Of a DNA stretch of 64,000 nt, positions 3-16,696 are shown one piece after another. A program made the translations under genes and the position numbers. Position 1 is the first letter of the stretch; the number at the start of each line of letters is the position of its first letter. The notes under the pieces are model-generated. The model was not told the DNA's origin, did not search any database, and saw nothing but the letters and a program-made list of their open reading frames with translations. The stretch lies in the IMG/VR virus record IMGVR_UViG_2894708747_000001, one strand, 5' to 3'. Source of the DNA: a virus. Its lineage: Duplodnaviria > Caudoviricetes.

Positions 3-2552
3 GTAGGAGATAATGTTAATCAAGGTCAGGCTATAGGTAAAGCAGGTAATACAGGTAATGTATGGTTTAGTGGTCATAAGGTTACAGGTAGTTACAATGA
101 TCCAAATTCTGAGCGGGCGCGGGGGCTAGGTTCACACTTACATTTTGAAATATGTTTACCTAACGGTAAAGGTGATATTTATGCTGTAGACCCTGTTCCT
201 TATTTAAATGGTAGCAAGAAATTATCTTTATCTTCAGGTAATACTGGTGATGGTGTAACTGTAGGGGAGACTTATACAGGTTTACCTGGGGAAGTACGGT
301 TGGATGAACAGTTTGTAAAACGGGATTGGTACACTGATCCCCGTTACAATTTAGATGCTAATTTCCAAATTTATTCATCATATGACGGAGAGGTACAAAG
401 GTTTGTCTTTGATCCTAATACGGTTTCGGAAGATGTTACGGTAGGTTTTAATATTGAGGTGGATATGCAGAGAGCAGGGTTTATGGATTTAAGTTATATG
501 GCTTCTTTGTCTGAGGGGGATCAGCTTAGAGTTTATGAAAATGGTAATTTAGTGCGGCGGGTGACGGAGTTTAGTGGGGTTGAAGAAGAGTTAAAGGGTA
601 TTGCTGTTCCCCAAGGGAAGAATATAATTAGAATTGAAGTTTTTTGGAAACGGGGTTCGCGGTTGCAAACTTTAGCTTTAAAACATATTCTTATTCAAGA
701 ATTAATTGTGCAAGCTCTAGCTAGAGGTGATAAAACAATAGATAATTTTGATCCGACGAGGGATTTGCCAGGGTCTTCTGTGGCTACTGGTTATTGGGAT
801 GTTATGACTATAGATAGTTTTGTGTTTAATGAGCAACCAGAAAAAGTAAGTTTGCAGGTAGGTCAATTTGTATATATGGATACTTTAACTTTGGATAATG
901 TTCAGAGTATTGAAATAGATAGTCAGTTTGATATGGAGGCGGCGGAGGCGCAAATAACGATTTCTAACCCTGATGGTTATTACAGTCCTGATTATAACCC
1001 TTATTTATTTCCTGAGTTATATAAGGATTCGCCGTTCTCATATTGGACTAATGGTGGTTTTCATGTTGGGGTTTTAAGTGAAAATACCCCGATTCGGATT
1101 TATTTAGGTTATGGTATGAATTTAATGCGGGTGTTTACAGGATTAATTGATCGGGTAGACATGACTGCTGATGGGAATATGACAATATATTGTCGTGATA
1201 GGTATAAAAAGATAATGGACAAAGTGCTAACGGAGACTAAGCAATATCCTCGTGAGATTGACCCCGCTAATCCGCTAACTAATGCCTCTTGGCGCGATCA
1301 GATTATTGCCGCCGCTAAAAAACATGCGGCGGCGGTTGGCGTCGATTATAAATTCTTATTAGCTATCGCACAACAAGAAACTGCGATGGGTACACAAGGA
1401 TGGGGGCGGCCTGAGCAGGGAGGTTATGTTCTTGGCTATGGGTGTTATAGTTCTTCTTACGCTGATCCAGCTTATGCAGGAATTGAAAAGCAGATGTATT
1501 ATGGAGCCAAACGTATGGTAGATGCTTTGCGGAGTCGAGGTTTTCAGGTAGATTCCTGGGATGATGTAGAATATTTTCGTTTAGGGGGAGATTTGGGAAC
1601 AGGATATACCTGGACTTCAGATGAGAATTGGACTAATAATGTTTGGAGTATTTATAATGAAATAAAAGCTAATCCATCCCAGTGGGATACTAATTATACA
1701 GAAAGTGCTTCGGGTACAGATGATAGCCAGAAAACGGCTTGGCTAAAATCGGCTGTAGTGCAAGATTTAGTAGCCCATGCAGGGATGTTTGGTTGGCGGG
1801 CTACTGATGAGGATAGGCAGTATCCTGATGCAATTATTGAAGAGACTTATTTAATAGAGGTAGATCAAAAACATGGGTATGTTGTAAAGGCGGGGTCAAG
1901 TGAAGGAGAATTTATTACGGTGCCTATTTCTTCTATACCCACCCCCCAGGGCTGGTTAAATCCCTTTGTAGAAGCCTATGGGAAAAAATTTGAGGCTTAT
2001 CGTTACAAAGTATCGGATTGTATTAATGAAGTAATTGGGGATCTTAATTATCGTTCTTATTGTGATCGTTACGGCACCTATCGCTTAGAACAGCTAAGAT
2101 TGGATAAGCCTGTTGTGGCTGAATTTACCGAAAACGAGAATTTACTTACTATCGCAAAGACTGTGGATTTTTCGCGAGCACGTAGCCATTTAGTTATTAT
2201 TGATGCTGATGGTCGCGCGGAAAATTTTATTGATAAGGAGATTTTATTGGAGTTAAAAGGAGAGTTGCGGACTGCGGTAATTAGCGTGGGGTGGGCAAAA
2301 TCTTCGGAAGCGAAAAAACAAGTAGCATTACGGGCCTTTTTTGACATGAAGCGGTTGTGCCGTACTTTACAGGTATCTATAGTTGGAAATCCAGCCTTAG
2401 ATATTTTAGATCGTATATTAGTAGTGGATAAACATACTACTACTCGTTCAGTCTATACTATTAAAGGTATTAGGACTAGTTTTTCTAAGGATACAGGTTA
2501 TATTCAAATTATTGATTTAATGTGGTCTGCCGCTGATGGGACGGTGGTATAA
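3..2552 (+). CDS. Tail-associated lysin/baseplate hub-like protein, 5'-truncated (M23 peptidase end + lysozyme-like insert + hub region)
   Basis: Frame is open from nt 3, upstream of the listed 300 start, and reads VGDNVNQGQAIGKAGNTG...HLHFEI...VDPVPYL (M23 HxH motif); internal AAAKKH..GVDYKFLLAIAQQET lysozyme-like segment; IYLGYG..RVFTGLIDRV and GNPALDILD hub-like motifs. Confidence 0.8.
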   Translation, partial: VGDNVNQGQAIGKAGNTGNVWFSGHKVTGSYNDPNSERARGLGSHLHFEICLPNGKGDIYAVDPVPYLNGSKKLSLSSGNTGDGVTVGETYTGLPGEVRLDEQFVKRDWYTDPRYNLDANFQIYSSYDGEVQRFVFDPNTVSEDVTVGFNIEVDMQRAGFMDLSYMASLSEGDQLRVYENGNLVRRVTEFSGVEEELKGIAVPQGKNIIRIEVFWKRGSRLQTLALKHILIQELIVQALARGDKTIDNFDPTRDLPGSSVATGYWDVMTIDSFVFNEQPEKVSLQVGQFVYMDTLTLDNVQSIEIDSQFDMEAAEAQITISNPDGYYSPDYNPYLFPELYKDSPFSYWTNGGFHVGVLSENTPIRIYLGYGMNLMRVFTGLIDRVDMTADGNMTIYCRDRYKKIMDKVLTETKQYPREIDPANPLTNASWRDQIIAAAKKHAAAVGVDYKFLLAIAQQETAMGTQGWGRPEQGGYVLGYGCYSSSYADPAYAGIEKQMYYGAKRMVDALRSRGFQVDSWDDVEYFRLGGDLGTGYTWTSDENWTNNVWSIYNEIKANPSQWDTNYTESASGTDDSQKTAWLKSAVVQDLVAHAGMFGWRATDEDRQYPDAIIEETYLIEVDQKHGYVVKAGSSEGEFITVPISSIPTPQGWLNPFVEAYGKKFEAYRYKVSDCINEVIGDLNYRSYCDRYGTYRLEQLRLDKPVVAEFTENENLLTIAKTVDFSRARSHLVIIDADGRAENFIDKEILLELKGELRTAVISVGWAKSSEAKKQVALRAFFDMKRLCRTLQVSIVGNPALDILDRILVVDKHTTTRSVYTIKGIRTSFSKDTGYIQIIDLMWSAADGTVV

Positions 2553-8384: not shown

Positions 8385-11300
8385 GTGTCTAAAACCTTTG
8401 GTATCCTTACAGAAGGACAAAAAGATGTAATGTTTGCCAATATGGGAGCGGCTTTAATTAATAATGATGCAATAAATAATCCTGGTAATCCTGTTGGCCC
8501 TAATTTTCCAAGGGCTATAGGACGTTTGCCTGGGTATCAGAATCCCATTTTAGGTGATCCTGGGCGGGGGCGTATTGGACGTTGGCAGTTTGTTAAGTAT
8601 GATTCTTTACAGAATGTTATTGATCAGGTTATAGAGCATTATGTAGAAAATAAGGATTGGTATAGTAGGGTGCGGTGTCGTGAGGCATTGTGGAATATGT
8701 ATCGTCGCTTAGAGTGGTGGGTGCGGCAACAGGTAGATCCAAGTAAAAATGATTATCAACGAGCTTTGCTTTATATAAAAGATTGTATAGCCAAGATCCT
8801 TGATCCTGGAGAAATGGAGTTAAAGGAAGTATTTGAGGAGTATTTTAATGATCAAAATAATATATCTTCTCAAGTAGTGACTTCTCCTGGGTGGGAGTGG
8901 GAAGATTTATGGACTACTTATAATGGGGGTTCTGGAGACGGTGTAATGATAGTTCGTAATAAAGAGGGGGCTTATACTTTAGATGTTACAGGTATTTCTC
9001 TCCCTCGTGGGGGAAAGGTATTATTTGAATATGGTGGTGCATTTAAGGGTAATGATAAGATAGAGTTAATTGTAAACGGTAAAAGTATGTGGACAGGCAA
9101 CACTTCTACTCGTACAGCCAGGGGTATTGATGTGGAAGTAGAGCTTCCTCCTAATACCAGTGAGCTAAAGTGGGTTTATACTTGCGGTTTTTCTTTAGAG
9201 GAACATTTTGGCTGGGTAGATAGTATTAGGATATTTTCTAATGAGTACGCTTATGGGGCTGATTTTAGCACCGAATTAGATGCGGGGCTTACTTATAGTG
9301 ACGGTTGGTATGATGATAAGGGCGCGGCCACGGTTACAGTGGCCCCCTCCACTACGGAAACTATTACTAAATCTTTTGCTTTTTTGAGTAAGGGTTATGT
9401 TATTTTCAGCTTCGCGGCTAGTTTAGGGGCGGGAGGGAGAATTTATCTAAAAATAGATGGCGATGAGGTTTGGTCTTATAGTCAAACAGGAGGTAGTGAT
9501 TTAAGTTTTAGGGATGTGCGAATTAATGTAGCTCCAGGATTTCATGATTTTGAGTGGGGGGTAGTAGGGGGGTCAGTTCCGAGTACAGTCAGAATAAAAA
9601 ATATTGAAATGGTGGAGTTAGTAAGTAATGAGGAAATAACAAAAATGACTCCTTACTGTCCTGCGCCTTATTTTCATTATTTTGATGCTGATTATTTTAA
9701 TCATTTTGATGGAAGCATTATTGAGCGGCCTACTTTTGATATGCGGACTTTACCGCTCTCAAATGATTTCCCTGCATTTTTTAGGTGGGTATCTTCTACA
9801 GAAGATCAAGAATGGGTAGTAGTTCATTCGGTAGGGGCTAATGAGCAAGCAGGTACAGAAAATATTTTAAAATTAGATTTAGGGATATTATCTTTTGGTA
9901 ATTCTTCTAAGATCACTTTTAATTGGCGTTTTAAACAGAGGGGTTTTATTCGGTTTAAGTATTTAGCTAGTGTGGATAAAGGTAATGGTTTGGTTTTCTT
10001 TATTAATGGTGAACAAGTGGGGGGCGAGTGGAGCCAGAGTAACGATTGGCAAGAAGTTAGTTTTAATGTATATCCTGGACAAACTTATAAATTTGATTGG
10101 TTGGTACGCAAGCAGTCGGCTAAGGATTGGGGTTATAATGCTGTTTATATAAAGGATATTGAGTGTGTGGAGACTATTAGAACGGCAGATCCTCCTACTC
10201 CGCCAGATTTTGATACTTTAGGAACGAAGGCATTAGAGGATGGACGTTATGAGTGGGTGACTTACTCGAAACAATCGGTGGTAAGAAGTAGGATGGGGGG
10301 TGATCAGCCTCTTGAAGAAGCTAGGGTCAGAAAGCTAGTATTTAATTTAGATAATGAATGTGATGGGGAGATTTCTTATTCTTACAAGTTGGATACAGAA
10401 ACACCTTTTCCTGAGCATACACAGGAAAACATCTTTTCAGATAACTTTCAGACACCGAATCAGCACGGAGAAAGTGTTCATGGTAGTTCAGTTGATGCTC
10501 AATATGATTCTAATTGGGTTTTAAATGGAGAGGAGTCGACTGCAACTGCGGATGGGGCAAAGATTGTTTATAAGATAAAGGTTGCTCCTGAAGCAACATT
10601 AGATTTACATGGTATATTTGAACTTGAACCACCAGATCGGGTTATTGATCATTATGAGGAACAGTTAGTTCCTGTCGCTTTTTCTGGTAGCAGTCGTTGG
10701 GTGGCAGACGGTAGCTGTTACACGATTAATAATATTACAGCAGGGATTTGGAGCATGTCTACTTCAGTTAATATGCCTAATGATGGCTATTTTGAATTTG
10801 ATTTTAGTCACGATTTGCGGCCTACGGAAAAGTTTCGGGTGGTTGTAAATGGGATAGTTGTTTTGGATTCTAAGGGTTTAAGGGCAGGAGATCATATTCG
10901 TATTAACCTTAAAGCAGGTAATAATCAAATTGAATTTAAGATTATTGATTCTTATACAGAACAGCCACTCCATGAAGATTATAGCGTTACTTATAATTAT
11001 GGTAATTATAGTAGTGGGGAACCTCAGCATTTTGTAACTCAGTTGGGAAATAAAGTGGAATTAACTCGTTATTGGGATGTGGGGGACGGAAGAGCTTATA
11101 CAAATCGTGATGGAGATTATATTATATATAATATTTCTCTTAATCCTGGTGCTAAATTCAGTTTGCATGAAAACGCTATTTTCCATACGGCTCCAGTGTA
11201 TGAGGGGGAAGGTAGAGAAATCTTTAGAGAAGATTTTAATATTAGGGGAGGAGTACATTCTCCAGCTATAAGTTTTAGCGGTCATTGGGAATGGGTAGAT

Positions 11301-13691
11301 TTATGGGCCGAAGAATTTTTAGGTGGGCCTGATCCTAATGTTGTGCATGATGGTGTATTTAGAGTACGAAATGCGGATGGTACAACTAATACAGTTTATT
11401 TGAGCATTAATTTGGCGGCACCTGGAAGTATATCGTTTGAGTATGGAGCAAATCTGGGTGATTATGAAACCTTTCAGCTTTGGGATGGAGATGTTTTAAT
11501 TTGGAGCGGTGATTCTACTTCGGATAGTCACGTCACTGTTCCATTAGGCCCTGGATACCATTCTTTACGGTGGGTATACCAAGATTTAGGAGGTACGACT
11601 TATACAAAACCTCCAACTGAAGAAAATCCAGGTTCTTCTAATTTACCTGCTAAAGAAGAATGGTGGTCGGCAGGAAATCAAGTTCATCCTATAAATTATA
11701 GCTATAAGTTTAAAGAAATTTATACGCCAAGAAAAACTTATTTAAATTGGTGGGCTGGAGATGATTCACAGATATTTTATTGGAATGGTCAAGCAGTTTC
11801 ACAGGGGACAGATATTGATGGGGCGACTATAACGCGAGATATAACTACTCCTGAATATGCATCGGTTACGTTAACTGAGAGATTGAAAATTTATCCAGGG
11901 AGTAAATCTTACTATAATGAAGCAAGGTGGGAAGATGTTCCTATTACTGGAAGAGGAAATATTCTTTTATTAGCTAATGAGGGAACAACTTCGACAGGAT
12001 GTCGGCCTGCTTTTGCATCTATCTCAATTATCGGTAAAACTGAAATTCGTTTCTCTTATAATACCTTCTTAACTTATTATGATGCGGGAGTAGGGAATTT
12101 TAATTCTCGTTATCATAGTGGGCCACGTGGAGCTTTTTGTTTTTATATTATACCTTTTGATGCTATTAAACCTATAGATTTGGATTGGTTTGATACTGAT
12201 AAGTTTTATCAATATAGACGATTTATTGTTTATGACAACAGAACAAATTACTCTTATCGTACCGCTTTAGAAGGAGATGGTATATATTATCTAGTATGGG
12301 TTGTAGTAGATTTGTGGGAAGATACCAATTATGTTTATGCTAATAACGCACTATGGTATTATGGAGCCCGAATATTATCACTACAAAAGAAGGTTAATGG
12401 TTATTATGTAGAGGGATATGATGATACTTATGTAGAATTTAAAGTGGTAGATGTAGCTAAAAATGTAGTGTTAAGTCAGAAAAATTTTTCGTGGGCAGAA
12501 GGTTATATACCTGTTAGTTATACTATTGCTCCTGGTGTAGCTGTTAGAATTTATTATACTTTACGAAAAGGGAAAGGTACAGAAGGGGGTATTAATGGAA
12601 CAGGTGGAGCTTTTACATTATCGCAAGGAAGTTTTGCTGAGTATTGGGGTTCATATGGTCGAGATGTAAATGATAATTATTACAGTATTTCTCCTTACAA
12701 TGAAATTCCTGATCCTCCACCACCGATACAGGTGGGAATAAGTTCAGATGATTCATGGGTTTGGTTAGATGCTATTCGAGTGGTTGAATCTGATAGTAGT
12801 TATACCGATGCTCGTTTAGATGTTATAGTGAAAGATGATGATACAGGTGCCATAATAACGAATCATAGTTATGATGCTAATGATGCTTTAAAGCAGAGTA
12901 TCGCAGAAGAAATAGTTAATAATTCAAATAGCAAAAAGACTTATACATTAATAATGCGTTTTCGTGGCGATGGTGGAGTTTATTTAAATAAAGGTGGCTT
13001 TACTATTACTGAAACAAAACCCGTGCCACCTAGTTATGCTAAATTTTGCAATGTAAAAGTGGTGCAAAGAGTTCCTATTTGGATGGGTGGCCCTGATGGA
13101 AGTAAGTTGCATGTAACTATCTATGATGAAGCGACCAATGCTGTGGTAGATAGTTGGACAACTGATTATAATGGAATATCGGATTATCCTTCTAGGTATT
13201 CTAATTTTACTCTTTCGCCATACTCTAATTATAGAGTGGAAGTAGTAACTGAACAACATGGTACAGTTAGTTCAGTGACAGGAAAAAAGTATTTAACTAC
13301 TTTCTATGTTCATGAATTTAAAGCAATAGAAAACTGGACTCATGTACCGAATACGTTTAGTTCAAAATTAGAATTTTATATTGATGGGATTTTGAAAGCA
13401 GTTCATGAACAATCAGGAGGTTACTATACGGTTTCTTTTCCTGTAACGAAAGGTAAGCATGAATTTAAATGGGTGTTTGTAGGGGGTAGTTCAGAAAGAA
13501 ATTGGGATTATGCCCAACTAGATTGGATAAGATTGACGAATTGGATATGTGATCGTGTTTATTTGGTGCCTTATTGTGAGCCTGGGGGTGGCGATAAGTG
13601 TATTGAAGCGTTAATAAGATGTTTGCTTAGTGTAGTTCAAAACAGGCCCCAGGGTTGTGTAGTTGGAAAGCGAATATGGTTGTTCACATAG
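8385..13691 (+). CDS. Large virion adhesin/fibre protein with about 10 beta-sandwich modules, several apparently nested
   Basis: Recurring G.I.F.Y / L.F.I(D/N)G / V.PG.H.F.W / W(V/L)D.IR motifs; tail-operon context. Confidence 0.75.
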   Translation: MSKTFGILTEGQKDVMFANMGAALINNDAINNPGNPVGPNFPRAIGRLPGYQNPILGDPGRGRIGRWQFVKYDSLQNVIDQVIEHYVENKDWYSRVRCREALWNMYRRLEWWVRQQVDPSKNDYQRALLYIKDCIAKILDPGEMELKEVFEEYFNDQNNISSQVVTSPGWEWEDLWTTYNGGSGDGVMIVRNKEGAYTLDVTGISLPRGGKVLFEYGGAFKGNDKIELIVNGKSMWTGNTSTRTARGIDVEVELPPNTSELKWVYTCGFSLEEHFGWVDSIRIFSNEYAYGADFSTELDAGLTYSDGWYDDKGAATVTVAPSTTETITKSFAFLSKGYVIFSFAASLGAGGRIYLKIDGDEVWSYSQTGGSDLSFRDVRINVAPGFHDFEWGVVGGSVPSTVRIKNIEMVELVSNEEITKMTPYCPAPYFHYFDADYFNHFDGSIIERPTFDMRTLPLSNDFPAFFRWVSSTEDQEWVVVHSVGANEQAGTENILKLDLGILSFGNSSKITFNWRFKQRGFIRFKYLASVDKGNGLVFFINGEQVGGEWSQSNDWQEVSFNVYPGQTYKFDWLVRKQSAKDWGYNAVYIKDIECVETIRTADPPTPPDFDTLGTKALEDGRYEWVTYSKQSVVRSRMGGDQPLEEARVRKLVFNLDNECDGEISYSYKLDTETPFPEHTQENIFSDNFQTPNQHGESVHGSSVDAQYDSNWVLNGEESTATADGAKIVYKIKVAPEATLDLHGIFELEPPDRVIDHYEEQLVPVAFSGSSRWVADGSCYTINNITAGIWSMSTSVNMPNDGYFEFDFSHDLRPTEKFRVVVNGIVVLDSKGLRAGDHIRINLKAGNNQIEFKIIDSYTEQPLHEDYSVTYNYGNYSSGEPQHFVTQLGNKVELTRYWDVGDGRAYTNRDGDYIIYNISLNPGAKFSLHENAIFHTAPVYEGEGREIFREDFNIRGGVHSPAISFSGHWEWVDLWAEEFLGGPDPNVVHDGVFRVRNADGTTNTVYLSINLAAPGSISFEYGANLGDYETFQLWDGDVLIWSGDSTSDSHVTVPLGPGYHSLRWVYQDLGGTTYTKPPTEENPGSSNLPAKEEWWSAGNQVHPINYSYKFKEIYTPRKTYLNWWAGDDSQIFYWNGQAVSQGTDIDGATITRDITTPEYASVTLTERLKIYPGSKSYYNEARWEDVPITGRGNILLLANEGTTSTGCRPAFASISIIGKTEIRFSYNTFLTYYDAGVGNFNSRYHSGPRGAFCFYIIPFDAIKPIDLDWFDTDKFYQYRRFIVYDNRTNYSYRTALEGDGIYYLVWVVVDLWEDTNYVYANNALWYYGARILSLQKKVNGYYVEGYDDTYVEFKVVDVAKNVVLSQKNFSWAEGYIPVSYTIAPGVAVRIYYTLRKGKGTEGGINGTGGAFTLSQGSFAEYWGSYGRDVNDNYYSISPYNEIPDPPPPIQVGISSDDSWVWLDAIRVVESDSSYTDARLDVIVKDDDTGAIITNHSYDANDALKQSIAEEIVNNSNSKKTYTLIMRFRGDGGVYLNKGGFTITETKPVPPSYAKFCNVKVVQRVPIWMGGPDGSKLHVTIYDEATNAVVDSWTTDYNGISDYPSRYSNFTLSPYSNYRVEVVTEQHGTVSSVTGKKYLTTFYVHEFKAIENWTHVPNTFSSKLEFYIDGILKAVHEQSGGYYTVSFPVTKGKHEFKWVFVGGSSERNWDYAQLDWIRLTNWICDRVYLVPYCEPGGGDKCIEALIRCLLSVVQNRPQGCVVGKRIWLFT

Positions 13692-13704
13692 GGTGGTGAG
13701 CTAA

Positions 13705-14841
13705 GTGGCATTGATGGTTTTAAAGCAAAAAGGATTAATTTATGAGGATGATTTTACTAATACATCTTTAGATGCTAGTTGGGAGGTAAATCCTAATGAT
13801 TTAAGTCGTTATTCTTTAACAGAGGTTGGGGGGTCGCTCCGATTAAAGCATGGGGTTGACCCCGTATATTTATTTTTTACTCCTTTAACTAACATACCTC
13901 AATTTGTTTTTGATATGAAGAATATTTATAACCCTACTATTGACGGTGATGTGGGTGGATTAGTGGTGTATGCCGATACTATGGATTATATTTCTTTAGA
14001 AGAATATTATGATGCTGTTTTAGGGGTAACTAAAACTTATCCTTGGTTACGTTTGGTAAGAGAATATAATATTTATCAGGCTTATTGGTCTGAAGATGGG
14101 TATATCTGGAATTTTATTGGTACCCAGCAAATTGATAGAGAAGCACCTAAAATTGGTTGTTTTTTAAGGGGGACTGAGGGTGAACCTTTAGATATTGATT
14201 ATATCCGTATATGTTCTAGTATTTATTTTACGGTTTCTGATCTTGTGGAGGGAACGCGGGTAGATTTATTAGATACGAACAATAATATTCTCGAAACTAG
14301 AGTTTGTCCAAAAGGTAGTACCAGAGTAGTTTTTAATTTAGTTAAATACGGAATCCCTTTTCCTTGTAAGTTTCAAATTACTACTGCTAATGGGGATATT
14401 TTTATTGATGATACGGTTTATACAGTGTGGGGTGGGGATGAGTATGCGTTTAAGCCATCTCCTTTAGATCTCTATTATATAAATGCTCAAGGTATGGAGG
14501 TTAAGATAGATCCTGGTTTAGAAGAGTTTTTAGGGTATCTTAATTCAGGTGGTTATCTTTACAAAGATATAAAAATGTTGGCAAAAAATAGTATGATGCA
14601 CGGTGAAGTAAGTAATATTACTGTAAAAGTTATTAGTTATAAAGATCCTGATGATTATCTTTTAGTCCAAGTAGCAAATGATGTAAATGGGATTCCTGAT
14701 CAGTTTGGGGAACAAATAAATCTTCCTAATATAGGGGCAGGGGGAACGGCTATTTTTTGGTTACGTGTTAATAGACCGTCTGATGAGACAGGCTCAGAGA
14801 TTTATTTTGGTTTGGATGTAGGTTCTGCTTATAGTTATTAG
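13705..14841 (+). CDS. Virion protein with an N-terminal concanavalin-like (beta-xylosidase C-terminal-like) domain
   Basis: YEDDF..LDASW and WLRLVRE.NIYQAYWSEDG..W motifs. Confidence 0.6.
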   Translation: MALMVLKQKGLIYEDDFTNTSLDASWEVNPNDLSRYSLTEVGGSLRLKHGVDPVYLFFTPLTNIPQFVFDMKNIYNPTIDGDVGGLVVYADTMDYISLEEYYDAVLGVTKTYPWLRLVREYNIYQAYWSEDGYIWNFIGTQQIDREAPKIGCFLRGTEGEPLDIDYIRICSSIYFTVSDLVEGTRVDLLDTNNNILETRVCPKGSTRVVFNLVKYGIPFPCKFQITTANGDIFIDDTVYTVWGGDEYAFKPSPLDLYYINAQGMEVKIDPGLEEFLGYLNSGGYLYKDIKMLAKNSMMHGEVSNITVKVISYKDPDDYLLVQVANDVNGIPDQFGEQINLPNIGAGGTAIFWLRVNRPSDETGSEIYFGLDVGSAYSY

Positions 14842-14855
14842 AGAGGTGTTGTAAC

Positions 14856-15728
14856 ATGAGTTGGGCAACTTATGAGGTATCAGAGAAAGAATTTAAAGAT
14901 TTAGTAGAATACGGGATACCCATTAAAGTACCAGTGGATGTTTTAGAGGCTAATTGTGGTGTAGAGGTACGAACTATTAGGGGAGGTTTTATAAACGCGA
15001 TTTATGATGCGAATTTAGGAGCTATAAGAAAATTAAATAGTTATAACCCCATTTATAAGGAAATACCTAACAGGGAATTAATGTTATATAATGATTATCT
15101 TCAAAATGAGAAGATAACAACGATTGTAGTAGACGGCTTTTTTGGAACAGGGAAAACGGCTACAGTATGTTCACATCTTGTTCCTGGTCTATTGGCTGAG
15201 TTGGAGGGTGGTAAAGGTATTCCTGTTGCTTATCTAACAAAACCTCACGAAAGCCTGGGCCGCACTTATGGACACTTACCTGGAAATTTAGCAGAAAAGT
15301 CTAAAGAAGAGTTTACGTCTTTTTTTCAGTATTTTGAGCGGTTTGGGCACCCCTTTTTAGTAGAAAGACTAACAGGAGAAGATGGTTCTGGTTGTAGATT
15401 ACTGAATATTATGGTATTTGAATATTTGCGGGGGCGGGATATAGATAGAGGTTGGATTATTCTTGATGAGGCACAAAATACAGATCGTAAAGAAATGGTT
15501 TCTTTTATTAGTCGGGTGGGAGATGGCGCAAAGTTGATAATTCTTGGAGATTCTACCGCTACGCAAATTGATAAACGAAATAATGACAGTGAAAATAATG
15601 GATTAAGTTTTGCTAAAGAGATTTTTAGAGGTAAAAAATATGCAGGAATAGTGACTTTACAAAGTACGAAACATATTTTACGGGGTCAGCGAGTAAGAGA
15701 TGTTTATTTAGCTCTTCGCAATAGTTAG
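14856..15728 (+). CDS. phoH: PhoH-family ATPase
   Basis: GFFGTGKT, GHLPG.L.EK, EYLRGR, IILDEAQN, SRVG..AKLIILGD..QID. Confidence 0.9.
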   Translation: MSWATYEVSEKEFKDLVEYGIPIKVPVDVLEANCGVEVRTIRGGFINAIYDANLGAIRKLNSYNPIYKEIPNRELMLYNDYLQNEKITTIVVDGFFGTGKTATVCSHLVPGLLAELEGGKGIPVAYLTKPHESLGRTYGHLPGNLAEKSKEEFTSFFQYFERFGHPFLVERLTGEDGSGCRLLNIMVFEYLRGRDIDRGWIILDEAQNTDRKEMVSFISRVGDGAKLIILGDSTATQIDKRNNDSENNGLSFAKEIFRGKKYAGIVTLQSTKHILRGQRVRDVYLALRNS

Positions 15729-15736
15729 GGGGATGA

Positions 15737-16696
15737 GTGATGGCAGTTAGATTTAGTCGTCAGGGGACTAATACAAATATACAAGATCATAATGAGTTAC
15801 TAAATCGAGGGATTAGAACTCATGAGGAAATAGACCAGTATCTAGCGGAAATAGATGCGGCTAGGGGAAGTTATGCTTCTTTAAAAGAAAGGCTGGATTT
15901 TATTGAAGGTGCTGTATACCCTGTAATACAACATATCATCGTTGATGAAACTTATTTGTCTCAAAACGATGGGTTAACTATAACGATTAACCCTCCATAT
16001 ATTGTGGGTAAAAATTATTTAGATGTCTTTTATAATGGTCAGTTTTTACGAGCTGGCGGCGGGTATGAGGAAGTCGATAACTTTACTATTAAATTAAATT
16101 TAGGTGTAGGAGATGCTGGCCAGCCGATAACCTTGGCCGTGGGGGATGAAATAGTTATTAGGAATTGGGCCAGTAGTTATCCTGCGACAGGGGGTATGGG
16201 GGTTTATGAAAACCTTAAATTATTAAGTTTGGAAGATGAAATTGAAAAGGCCCGCCAATATCAATCTGCTGATATTAGTTACACATCATTAGATGAACGG
16301 TTGGATTACTTGCAAGCTAAAGCAGAAGCTAGTAATGAAAGGGTTATTGTTTTTGTTATTCCTGGTAGGATTTCAGCAGGGGAGCAAAAGGTGGAAATAA
16401 GATTTCCTTTTAATGGGGTAATAACAGGAGTGACTGCTTCTTGTCGGGTGCCAGGGAGCACTCCTTCAACTATTCAGGTAGAGAAAATATCAGAAGCAGA
16501 TTATGATAATAATCTCAATAGTTGGGTAAATATATTGTCGCAGGCTTTAACTTTACCTTCTGGTAAGAAGATTAGTAGTTATGATTATGTAATAGGAATA
16601 AACCAAGTGACGCAGGGTGATTATTTTCGTTTGAATATAATAGAGGTAGGAAACGGTATTGAAGATTTGACTGTAGAAATAATTATTAACTGTTAA
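15737..16696 (+). CDS. Virion/baseplate-associated protein
   Basis: Repeated EI..AR....SL.ERLD motif; LDVFYNGQFL...YEEV small beta domain. Confidence 0.6.
   Translation: MMAVRFSRQGTNTNIQDHNELLNRGIRTHEEIDQYLAEIDAARGSYASLKERLDFIEGAVYPVIQHIIVDETYLSQNDGLTITINPPYIVGKNYLDVFYNGQFLRAGGGYEEVDNFTIKLNLGVGDAGQPITLAVGDEIVIRNWASSYPATGGMGVYENLKLLSLEDEIEKARQYQSADISYTSLDERLDYLQAKAEASNERVIVFVIPGRISAGEQKVEIRFPFNGVITGVTASCRVPGSTPSTIQVEKISEADYDNNLNSWVNILSQALTLPSGKKISSYDYVIGINQVTQGDYFRLNIIEVGNGIEDLTVEIIINC

Follow-up and report, generated by a model that had tools for sequence, protein, structure and literature searches.

Analysis of the window, a stretch of 64,000 nucleotides from a virus of the class Caudoviricetes, shows that one of its genes (8385..13691, plus strand, GTG start) encodes a protein of 1768 amino acids in which nested domain insertion is real: four independent lines, among them profile comparison, paired loss of segments and central variability, agree on the nesting. 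We consider it likely that the product is a tail-tip accessory protein with CBM-like beta-sandwiches nested six deep, which would form a doubly connected arm anchored at its base and bind a cell-wall polymer with the core at its tip. The folds are familiar throughout, yet the protein (P0001) matches no Pfam family at E <= 0.01 and no PHROG family. Searches with the whole protein against 50,697 phage records (tblastn, megablast) returned no match, thus no characterised phage among them carries it; 52 relatives were found elsewhere.

The proposed layout begins with a conserved N-terminal domain (aa 1-145, 8385..8819; all parts are on the plus strand), which has an HMM match in all full-length relatives and probably serves for virion attachment. 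It is followed by three contiguous type-A jelly rolls in tandem, namely module 1 (aa 146-288, 8820..9248), module 2 (aa 289-415, 9249..9629) and, beyond a conserved linker with a CPAPY motif (aa 416-454, 9630..9746), the highly conserved module 3 (aa 455-600, 9747..10184). The remainder reads D4[D5[D6[D7[D8[D9[core]]]]]] plus a Cys-rich tail, i.e. six CBM-like beta-sandwiches, each interrupted by the next one. The outgoing arm comprises the N-part of D4 (type A, split mid-domain, aa 610-676, 10212..10412), the N-half of D5 (type B, aa 677-752, 10413..10640), the N-part of D6 (type A, all except the last strand, aa 753-860, 10641..10964), the N-half of D7 (type B, aa 861-940, 10965..11204), the N-part of D8 (type A, a copy of module 1 without the last strand, aa 941-1078, 11205..11618) and the N-half of D9 (type B, aa 1090-1176, 11652..11912). 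It leads to an unbroken central core, an aromatic-rich, hypervariable beta-sandwich (aa ~1177-1342, 11913..12410). The returning arm comprises the C-half of D9 (aa 1343-1425, 12411..12659), the last strand of D8 with its lead-in (WVWLDAIRVVE; aa 1445-1472, 12717..12800), the C-half of D7 (aa 1473-1548, 12801..13028), the last strand of D6 (aa 1549-1570, 13029..13094), the C-half of D5 (aa 1571-1656, 13095..13352) and the C-part of D4 (aa 1657-1722, 13353..13550), followed by the conserved Cys-rich C-terminal tail (aa 1723-1768, 13551..13688). Two module types alternate: type A (D4, D6, D8), kin to modules 1-3 and opened just before the last strand in D6 and D8 and mid-domain in D4, and type B (D5, D7, D9), opened every time at the same mid-domain loop. 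The polypeptide would travel out to the core and then back, contributing strands of both arms to every host domain; this would unite the two most conserved ends (the N-terminal domain with module 3, and the C-terminal tail) at the base and leave the middle of the sequence outermost. Domain boundaries were taken from segment HMMs and DSSP strands of AF2 models, which place the last strand of D8 at 1458-1469, that of D6 at 1551-1567, the two parts of D9 at ~1097-1177 and ~1341-1421, and the core at ~1184-1336; an earlier, sequence-only reading of the same DNA had drawn the D4-D9 boundaries within a few residues of these.

The protein was compared with itself by windowed self-BLAST, with the query stretch masked, and by profile-profile comparison of sub-alignments. 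Both bear out the proposal of three contiguous copies of one module (module 1 to module 2, E 8.5e-14; module 2 to module 3, E 1.2e-8; module 1 to module 3, E 8e-5). D8, described earlier as a close copy of module 1, is indeed one (31% identity, E 7e-12 in BLAST): in hhalign, positions 2-127 of module 1 match the N-part of D8 (D8N, E 1.6e-41), and positions 126-142 match its distant last strand (D8C, E 3e-9). A contiguous module 1 thus corresponds to D8N plus a remote D8C, which argues against a beads-on-a-string organisation, in which the halves would be small independent beta domains and the reverse order of closing would be an impression created by repeats and over-read models. D4C resembles the C-terminal half of module 1 (E 4.7e-10), as well as those of module 2 and D8N, and BLAST aligns 352-425 with 1661-1731. 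Among the type-B segments, N-halves match N-halves (D5N and D7N, E 1.1e-9; D7N and D9N, E 4e-7) and C-halves match C-halves (D9C and D7C, E 7.6e-11; D9C and D5C, E 1.7e-6; D7C and D5C, E 6.3e-6; all by hhalign), with no pairing of an N-half with a C-half among the best 45 sub-alignment pairs. By these profiles, D5, D7 and D9 are copies of a single module type with a common split site; they alternate with the other type, as had been suggested. An HMM of module 3 by itself detected only module 2 and weak partial matches. A strict end-of-module motif occurs at 3 sites (aa 404, 589 and 1554) against 0.28 expected; it misses the ends of module 1, D4 and D8, so the hit at aa 1554 counts as weak support for D6C.

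The same topology emerges from two AF2 models, both built on the same alignment of 42-45 sequences. The first (aa 610-1768; mean pLDDT 79.9, pTM 0.44) is a monomer consisting of beta-sandwich domains and one C-terminal helix (model 1127-1143) within the Cys-rich tail, whose very end has low pLDDT; the second (aa 1090-1425) has pLDDT 84.9, rising to 97-98 in the D9 halves. Topology was read from VIA-align ranges, each of which gives the first and last aligned residue only. At rmsd 2.5-3.5 A, solved chains that are single beta-sandwiches can be aligned from the start of a domain on the outgoing arm to its end on the returning arm, with more aligned residues than either arm alone holds, for D4, D5, D6 and D8 in the first model and for D9 in the second. 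The earlier expectation that folding would yield sandwiches spanning both arms is borne out for these five domains, which are discontinuous in the models and, with D7, make up six host levels around the core in a recursive A1-B1-C-B2-A2 pattern. For D8, the DSSP strand at model 849-860 closes 38 of the 50 listed VIA ranges, and for D9, 49 of the 50 listed rows span ~8..~332 of the second model, with 112-144 residues aligned. D4, D5 and D6 are represented by one row each among the 50 listed, since D8 fills the lists; this speaks for independent beads, and the superposition of solved single domains across both arms speaks against them. The D5 row is 8jp4_A (range 69..1044), and the D6 range (148..951) ends within the DSSP strand at model 942-958. 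There is no row for D7 among those listed, hence the claim that D4-D9 close in reverse order stands on the models for the other five levels and on paired loss and homology for D7. At pTM 0.44 the domains may be arranged as a rod or as a clump, and we infer the stalk shape rather than read it from the model. Foldseek searches with the large model listed beta proteins of several domains, namely reelin, C5 and Cry toxins, at TM <= 0.15, which is uninformative on topology.

The relatives display the same order and lose its parts in pairs. The order of 17 segments is identical, in one frame, at 22 of 26 genome loci and 15 of 18 IMG/VR loci, and this recurrence makes the nested order more than chance. 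The prediction that homologs would lose N- and C-side segments jointly is confirmed in three ways: P0043 and P0044 have lost both aa ~956-1089 and 1445-1472 (D8N and D8C); P0040 lacks both D7N and D7C, with a Gly-rich linker in place of the former; and P0066 (799 aa) matches aa 1-688 and then passes straight to 1658-1768 (E 5e-112 and 2e-28), i.e. its D4 is contiguous and everything between D4N and D4C is absent. Truncated hits (P0041, P0045-P0052, P0056, P0058, P0059, P0065), taken to be fragments or frameshifted copies, were excluded from this argument. Modules 1 and 2 are jointly absent from 38 of 44 aligned relatives. In three divergent full-length relatives the segment HMMs missed D6C (P0054, P0057, P0062), D8C (P0057, P0062) and D4N with D5C (P0062); all three have unassigned sequence of roughly the length required where the missed segments are expected. 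These natural variants are compatible with growth by serial insertion, and may record either gain or loss of levels.

A further group of relatives, at first sight, favours beads on a string: in P0060, P0061, P0063, P0064 and others a polypeptide has C-side halves and lacks the N-side ones. At L026 (= L042), L043 and L046, however, the missing N-halves are encoded by the ORF immediately upstream. These three distinct loci, viral or prophage, have the gene as two adjacent ORFs, with the cut exactly at the D8/D9 junction. The first ORF stops directly after the D8-type penultimate strand (...GGGS*, ...GGDS*, ...DTNS*), and the second contains the core and the C-halves, with D9N above threshold in L026/L042 only. 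In L026, where the two ORFs lie at 9986-13363 and 13364-16474, the stop and the following start abut (TAAATG), and the second ORF has a motif resembling the D8 last strand downstream of D9C. With the gene cut at this point, pairing of the half-domains would need to take place in trans; these loci may represent a sub-family in which two genes share an arm divided at its tip and their products restore the split domains. The two-gene split at the D8/D9 junction is an observation that the present analysis adds. Together with the three kinds of paired loss, these loci leave beads on a string largely refuted and, in our estimate, highly improbable.

Column entropy, computed without P0041, P0045 and P0046, reaches its maximum in the core (2.70), with minima at the N-terminus (1.00), module 3 (0.99) and the C-terminal tail (0.75), so that variation peaks at the centre, as had been anticipated. 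The core is also, as claimed, an unbroken aromatic-rich domain (F+W+Y 20.5% vs 14.1% for the whole protein). In some relatives cell-wall-binding-type domains are found here or nearby: P0044 has PG_binding_1 (E 6.7e-25) inserted within the core region, P0061 has LysM (E 3e-17) ahead of D9N, and P0067 carries PG_binding_1 in an N-extension. In the mechanism we propose, the base of the protein would be anchored in the baseplate, the nested sandwiches would make up an arm, doubly connected and varied in length by whole "dolls", and the hypervariable core, probably the distal binding tip, would bind a host cell-wall polymer at adsorption. The out-and-back chain of the sequence-only reading is supported, and its rod-like stalk, direction of insertion and receptor-binding tip are elements that we infer, as it did.

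Nesting could be real without the protein being a receptor-binding adhesin: its role might be that of a scaffold or a structural arm in the baseplate, or of an accessory tether to the cell wall, with specificity residing in a neighbour such as the 378-aa protein encoded downstream (13705-14841). That neighbour has a ConA-like domain (GH43_C2, E 1.6e-6), belongs to a conserved PHROG and is syntenic in L026. The domains of the 1768-aa protein have a beta-jelly-roll fold over most of their length and match no curated CBM sequence family, and CBM-like folds are so widespread that the fold by itself is no proof of function. Scaffolds, on the other hand, are mostly conserved. The concentration of variability at the predicted structural tip and the placement of PG_binding_1 or LysM there in relatives make such roles unlikely, though they are the most serious of the competing explanations. 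Under the adhesin reading, the protein might even exemplify a second way to build a host-recognition arm, namely a single-chain hairpin of nested sandwiches in place of a trimeric fibre, with reach tuned by whole levels, a freely exchanged tip, and tip-cut halves that zip in trans to complete ~5 split beta-sandwiches, including a single last strand donated to a jelly roll; we put this forward tentatively, the chances being somewhat against it.

The gene neighbourhood bears on whether the product belongs to a virion at all. Upstream lie a major head protein, a 2246-aa ORF and then ORFs of 203, 464 and 849 aa; the gene follows the ORFs in the TMP, Dit and Tal positions and is the fifth ORF past the one in the Tal position. 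Neighbouring genes match "virion structural" and "tail" PHROGs, the gene order is shared with the Anaerovirgula locus L026, and Phage_sheath_1 was not found in the genome. The carrier would accordingly be a siphovirus-like phage or prophage, and the product a tail-tip accessory protein. Most relatives reside in chromosomes or plasmids of Paenibacillus and Brevibacillus, and sequenced phage isolates yielded no match, as would be the case for a surface or cell-wall protein of the bacterial host or for non-virion prophage cargo. Against such an origin, the gene always lies within a conserved tail-gene block, viral contigs in IMG/VR, 36-204 kb long, carry 18 of the loci, and reading the sequence by eye we saw neither a signal peptide nor an anchor motif; we regard it as very improbable.

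Domain insertion is common, and deep recursion is rare. The sequence-only reading knew of no phage adhesin described with nesting of this depth, and in the literature we found no report of it in a phage tail protein; among proteins in general it has a precedent. According to PMC13114784, the Si3 insertion of the cyanobacterial RNA polymerase beta' subunit (RpoC2; AFDB A2C6T1) is built recursively as A1-B1-C-B2-A2 to six levels, so that the depth is not unprecedented; the main text of that paper does not mention phages. Both proteins have small beta-rich domains inserted recursively, six deep, in a chain that runs out and back. Si3 consists of sandwich-barrel hybrid motifs of one kind in the trigger loop of an enzyme, whereas the phage protein has two alternating CBM-like jelly-roll kinds round a distinct variable core, is encoded in a tail-gene block, and has relatives in which single levels are missing or the gene is divided at the tip. 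Jelly rolls of CBM, MAM or Eph type make up the structural neighbours listed, with no RNA polymerase chain among the 50 rows listed per search. The one published six-level case is an RNA polymerase insertion; here a family of phage tail proteins without annotation reaches equal depth and supplies natural experiments: relatives that lack one level (in two versions), a relative that lacks them all, and loci where the chain is divided between two genes at its tip. With these variants one can test how discontinuous beta-sandwiches fold, whether split halves are able to assemble in trans, and how the adhesion devices of phages that infect Gram-positive bacteria come to differ in reach and specificity. 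For annotators and developers of domain predictors, the result is also a warning that such proteins defeat a linear parsing of domains.

Other comparisons concern the modules themselves. The "evolved" Dit and Tal proteins of Gram-positive siphophages carry inserted CBMs, regarded as binders of host wall glycans (PMC7533335, PMC8540738, PMC9692632). Here, too, CBM-type modules are set into loops of a tail-tip protein; unlike there, host and guest are all CBM-like, six deep and encoded by a separate gene, for which no PHROG or Pfam family of Dit or Tal type gave a match. Insertions in evolved Dit and Tal are not known to go beyond one level, and the domain that hosts them is that of Dit or Tal itself. 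The solved jelly rolls that align include CBM61 (2xom), CBM16 (2zew), CBM22 (4xuo), a porphyran-binding CBM (8xmz), MAM (7uaf, 5l73) and Eph ligand-binding domains, at 4-18% identity in the listed rows; the domains described here differ from them in being discontinuous and in belonging to no sequence family. The family profile found one chance-level hit among PDB sequences (E 0.47). Feature matches to CBM_4_9 clusters in the ESM Atlas (0.82-0.83, below 0.9) are a lead only. For the model of D9 with the core, Foldseek listed birnavirus VP2 and P23-77 VP17 at TM <= 0.24, together with uncharacterised phage proteins in BFVD.

Windowed self-BLAST and profile-profile comparison of sub-alignments taken from the 45-sequence family alignment define two types of modules in the 1768-aa protein: type A comprises the contiguous modules 1, 2 and 3 together with the split domains D4, D6 and D8, and type B comprises D5, D7 and D9. 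Each split domain has an outgoing (N) and a returning (C) part that enclose the next one, down to a central core (aa ~1177-1342). In the profile-profile comparison, module 1 aligns with D8N over its positions 2-127 (E 1.6e-41) and with D8C, ~380 residues downstream, over positions 126-142 (E 3e-9, probability 96%). D6N resembles D8N (E 1.8e-15) and module 1 (E 2.4e-14), and D4C resembles the C-terminal half of module 1 (E 4.7e-10), module 2 (E 1.5e-6) and D8N (E 1.5e-10). The type-B N-halves are alike among themselves, as are the type-B C-halves, and the best 45 pairs include no match of an N-half to a C-half. Judged from these profile matches of the split parts to contiguous modules and to each other, the break in D6 and D8 falls just ahead of the final strand; D4 is opened in mid-domain, and D5, D7 and D9 share a single mid-domain opening site.

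The AlphaFold2 model of aa 610-1768 (numbered here from 1 = aa 610) was compared with solved chains. For D8, 38 of the 50 matches listed in a wide search run from model residues ~327-352 to ~857-865 (100-142 aligned, rmsd 2.3-4.3 A), e.g. 2xom_A, a 145-aa family 61 carbohydrate-binding module (CBM61; model 334..860, score 12.6, rmsd 2.5, 126 aligned). A second search paired D8 with the meprin MAM domain 7uaf_D (335..861, score 14.2, rmsd 2.7, 136 aligned). The 38 matches of the wide search end in the strand WVWLDAIRVVE (aa ~1458-1468; DSSP strand at model 849-860), which argues that in the predicted fold the last strand of D8 is supplied by the returning arm. D4 matches 6yf6_B (21..1109, score 9.5, rmsd 2.5, 100 aligned) and D5 matches 8jp4_A (69..1044, score 9.6, rmsd 3.4, 136 aligned), in both cases with more residues aligned than the outgoing segment contains; the range of D6 (6tfj_A, 148..951, score 9.9, rmsd 2.6, 105 aligned) terminates inside a long strand at 942-958. 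D7 has no match among those listed; its neighbors in the nest, D6 outside it and D8 inside it, are both closed, and each of its halves is homologous to its D5 and D9 counterparts. When aa 1090-1425 were modeled alone (pLDDT 84.9, both D9 halves 97-98), 49 of the 50 listed matches were single CBM-type domains spanning ~8..~332 of this second model (112-144 aligned), e.g. for D9 the 137-aa 8xmz_B (8..332, score 10.7, rmsd 3.1, 124 aligned). The remaining one, the surface glycan-binding protein 7kwc_AAA (score 8.0, rmsd 3.2, 112 aligned), is confined to 95..247, i.e. to the contiguous core. A "stalk" shape is a hypothesis, since how the domains are oriented towards one another is uncertain (pTM 0.44). 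The best Foldseek PDB matches of the second model (m2c21ac13af2d) are the capsid proteins VP2 of birnaviruses and VP17 of phage P23-77. In birnavirus VP2 a projection-domain jelly roll is inserted into the shell-domain jelly roll; as the TM-scores are only 0.14-0.24, the likeness is probably no more than shared topology.

Natural variants lack both parts of a level together. Relatives P0043 and P0044 jointly lack query residues 956-1089 and 1445-1472 (D8N and D8C), and P0040 has a Gly-rich linker in place of D7N and also lacks 1476-1540 (D7C); segment HMMs bear out both losses. In the 799-aa relative P0066 the HMMs detect, in order, the N-terminal domain, modules 1 and 2, the linker, module 3, D4N (633-680), D4C (687-753) and the C-tail. 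By BLASTP its residues 5-692 correspond to query 1-688 and residues 688-799 to query 1658-1768; P0066 is thus the same protein with D4 unbroken and nothing inside. The edges of the insert delimited by D5 open with a similar short motif, FSDNF (aa 684-688, nt ~10434) and FSSKL (aa 1658-1662, nt ~13356), and the P0066 junction has a single FSSRF; the likeness may be a trace of an insertion or deletion event, or chance. Modules 1 and 2 are absent from 38 of the 44 aligned relatives and are therefore optional tandem beads.

In another group of relatives the gene is divided in two, with the cut at the hairpin's structural tip. At loci L026 (identical to L042), L043 and L046, ORF1 extends from the N-terminal domain through D4N (D5N) to D8N and ends directly after the D8-type penultimate strand, and ORF2 supplies the core together with the C-halves and the C-tail; in L046 the locus ends within ORF2, after D5C. 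D9N exceeds the HMM threshold in ORF2 of L026/L042 only. In L026 the ORF1 stop adjoins the ORF2 start (TAAATG), and ORF2 has a D8-last-strand-like motif 3' of D9C. Eight cluster representatives (P0060, P0061, P0063, P0064, P0068, P0070, P0071 and P0072) start before the D9/core region and possess only the C-side halves. If these proteins are functional, we infer that the split half-domains must be completed in trans. In part of this sub-family (P0063, P0064, P0068, P0071, P0072 and L026 ORF2, L026:13364-16474) the conserved C-tail itself is broken: HMM hits to its first ~30 and its last 12-18 residues are separated by 150-300 aa of repeated ~75-aa modules (with a weak MucBP match in P0068, E 4.6e-4), thus the final KIWLFT strand may close yet another element.

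The published analysis of recursive domain insertion (PMC13114784) covers 48,551 insertion events; its most extreme case is the six-level nested Si3 region of Prochlorococcus RpoC2, and phages go unmentioned in the main text. CBM insertions have been described for the Dit and Tal proteins of siphophages with Gram-positive hosts (PMC7533335, PMC8540738 and PMC9692632), and our literature search returned no report of deep nesting in a phage tail protein. Recursive domain insertion is thus known in principle; here it involves jelly rolls of CBM-like type, occurs in a tail protein of a phage, and comes with natural level-loss and split-gene variants.

The protein matches no Pfam or PHROG family and nothing in 50,697 phage records. 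A collection of 5.8 billion proteins yielded 52 relatives, mostly "hypothetical proteins" of 1490-1570 aa from Paenibacillus and Brevibacillus, and 1.84 billion cluster representatives gave only 50 matches at E <= 1e-3. All 17 segments occur in order and in a single frame at 22 of the 26 loci in species-representative genomes (the others being two frameshifted, one split and one at a contig end), and equally at 15 of the 18 loci in IMG/VR viral contigs (36-204 kb), the remaining three being split. In two Paenibacillus loci (L016:9989-14685 and L020:9953-14655) the gene is spread over two overlapping frames, either because it is frameshifted or a pseudogene, or perhaps through an error in sequencing. 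The 2888-aa P0054 has a ~1250-aa N-terminal extension ahead of the conserved N-domain, followed by the complete nested series.

Column entropy is low towards the ends (N-domain 1.00, module 3 0.99, C-tail 0.75) and climbs to 2.70 in the core, with 15% identity to the query there; the core is also rich in aromatic residues. P0044 has two PG_binding_1 stretches (E 6.7e-25) in its core region, inside an insertion of ~110 aa, the split form P0061 has a LysM domain (E 3e-17) ahead of D9N, again at the tip, and P0067 has PG_binding_1 in its N-extension. On these grounds the putative function of the tip would be binding of a cell-wall polymer, with the conserved ends presumably docking to the baseplate.

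The gene is a single 1768-codon ORF (window 8385-13691, +) within a row of genes on the same strand. The contig that includes the window measures 103,282 bp and belongs to an assembly of 3.06 Mb in 10 contigs. Upstream of the window, the same contig (L028) encodes a major head protein (phrog_1005, E 2e-95), an unusually long 2246-aa ORF in the tape-measure position (L028:9003-15743, G000:C4), and then ORFs of 203 and 464 aa. The window starts with an 849-aa ORF matching phrog_36429 and the phrog_1887 "tail protein", whose Anaerovirgula homolog has a peptidase of the M23 type. Between it and the 1768-aa gene come two ORFs of 135 aa each, a pair matching "virion structural protein" PHROGs (phrog_11431 and others) and a 677-aa ORF without a match to known families. 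The tail block is immediately followed by a PhoH-like ATPase (14856-15728, +; PF02562, E 1.6e-24). The L026 neighborhood is syntenic with the window, and Phage_sheath_1 has no match anywhere in the genome. By their position, ORFs upstream of the gene correspond to Dit and Tal. We take the arrangement to be that of a siphovirus-like phage, or of an extrachromosomal prophage, whose tail-tip (adhesion-device) block includes the gene. The downstream neighbor, also kept beside the big gene in L026, is a 378-aa ConA-like protein (13705-14841, +; N-terminal domain GH43_C2, E 1.6e-6; phrog_7317), possibly a second binding protein.
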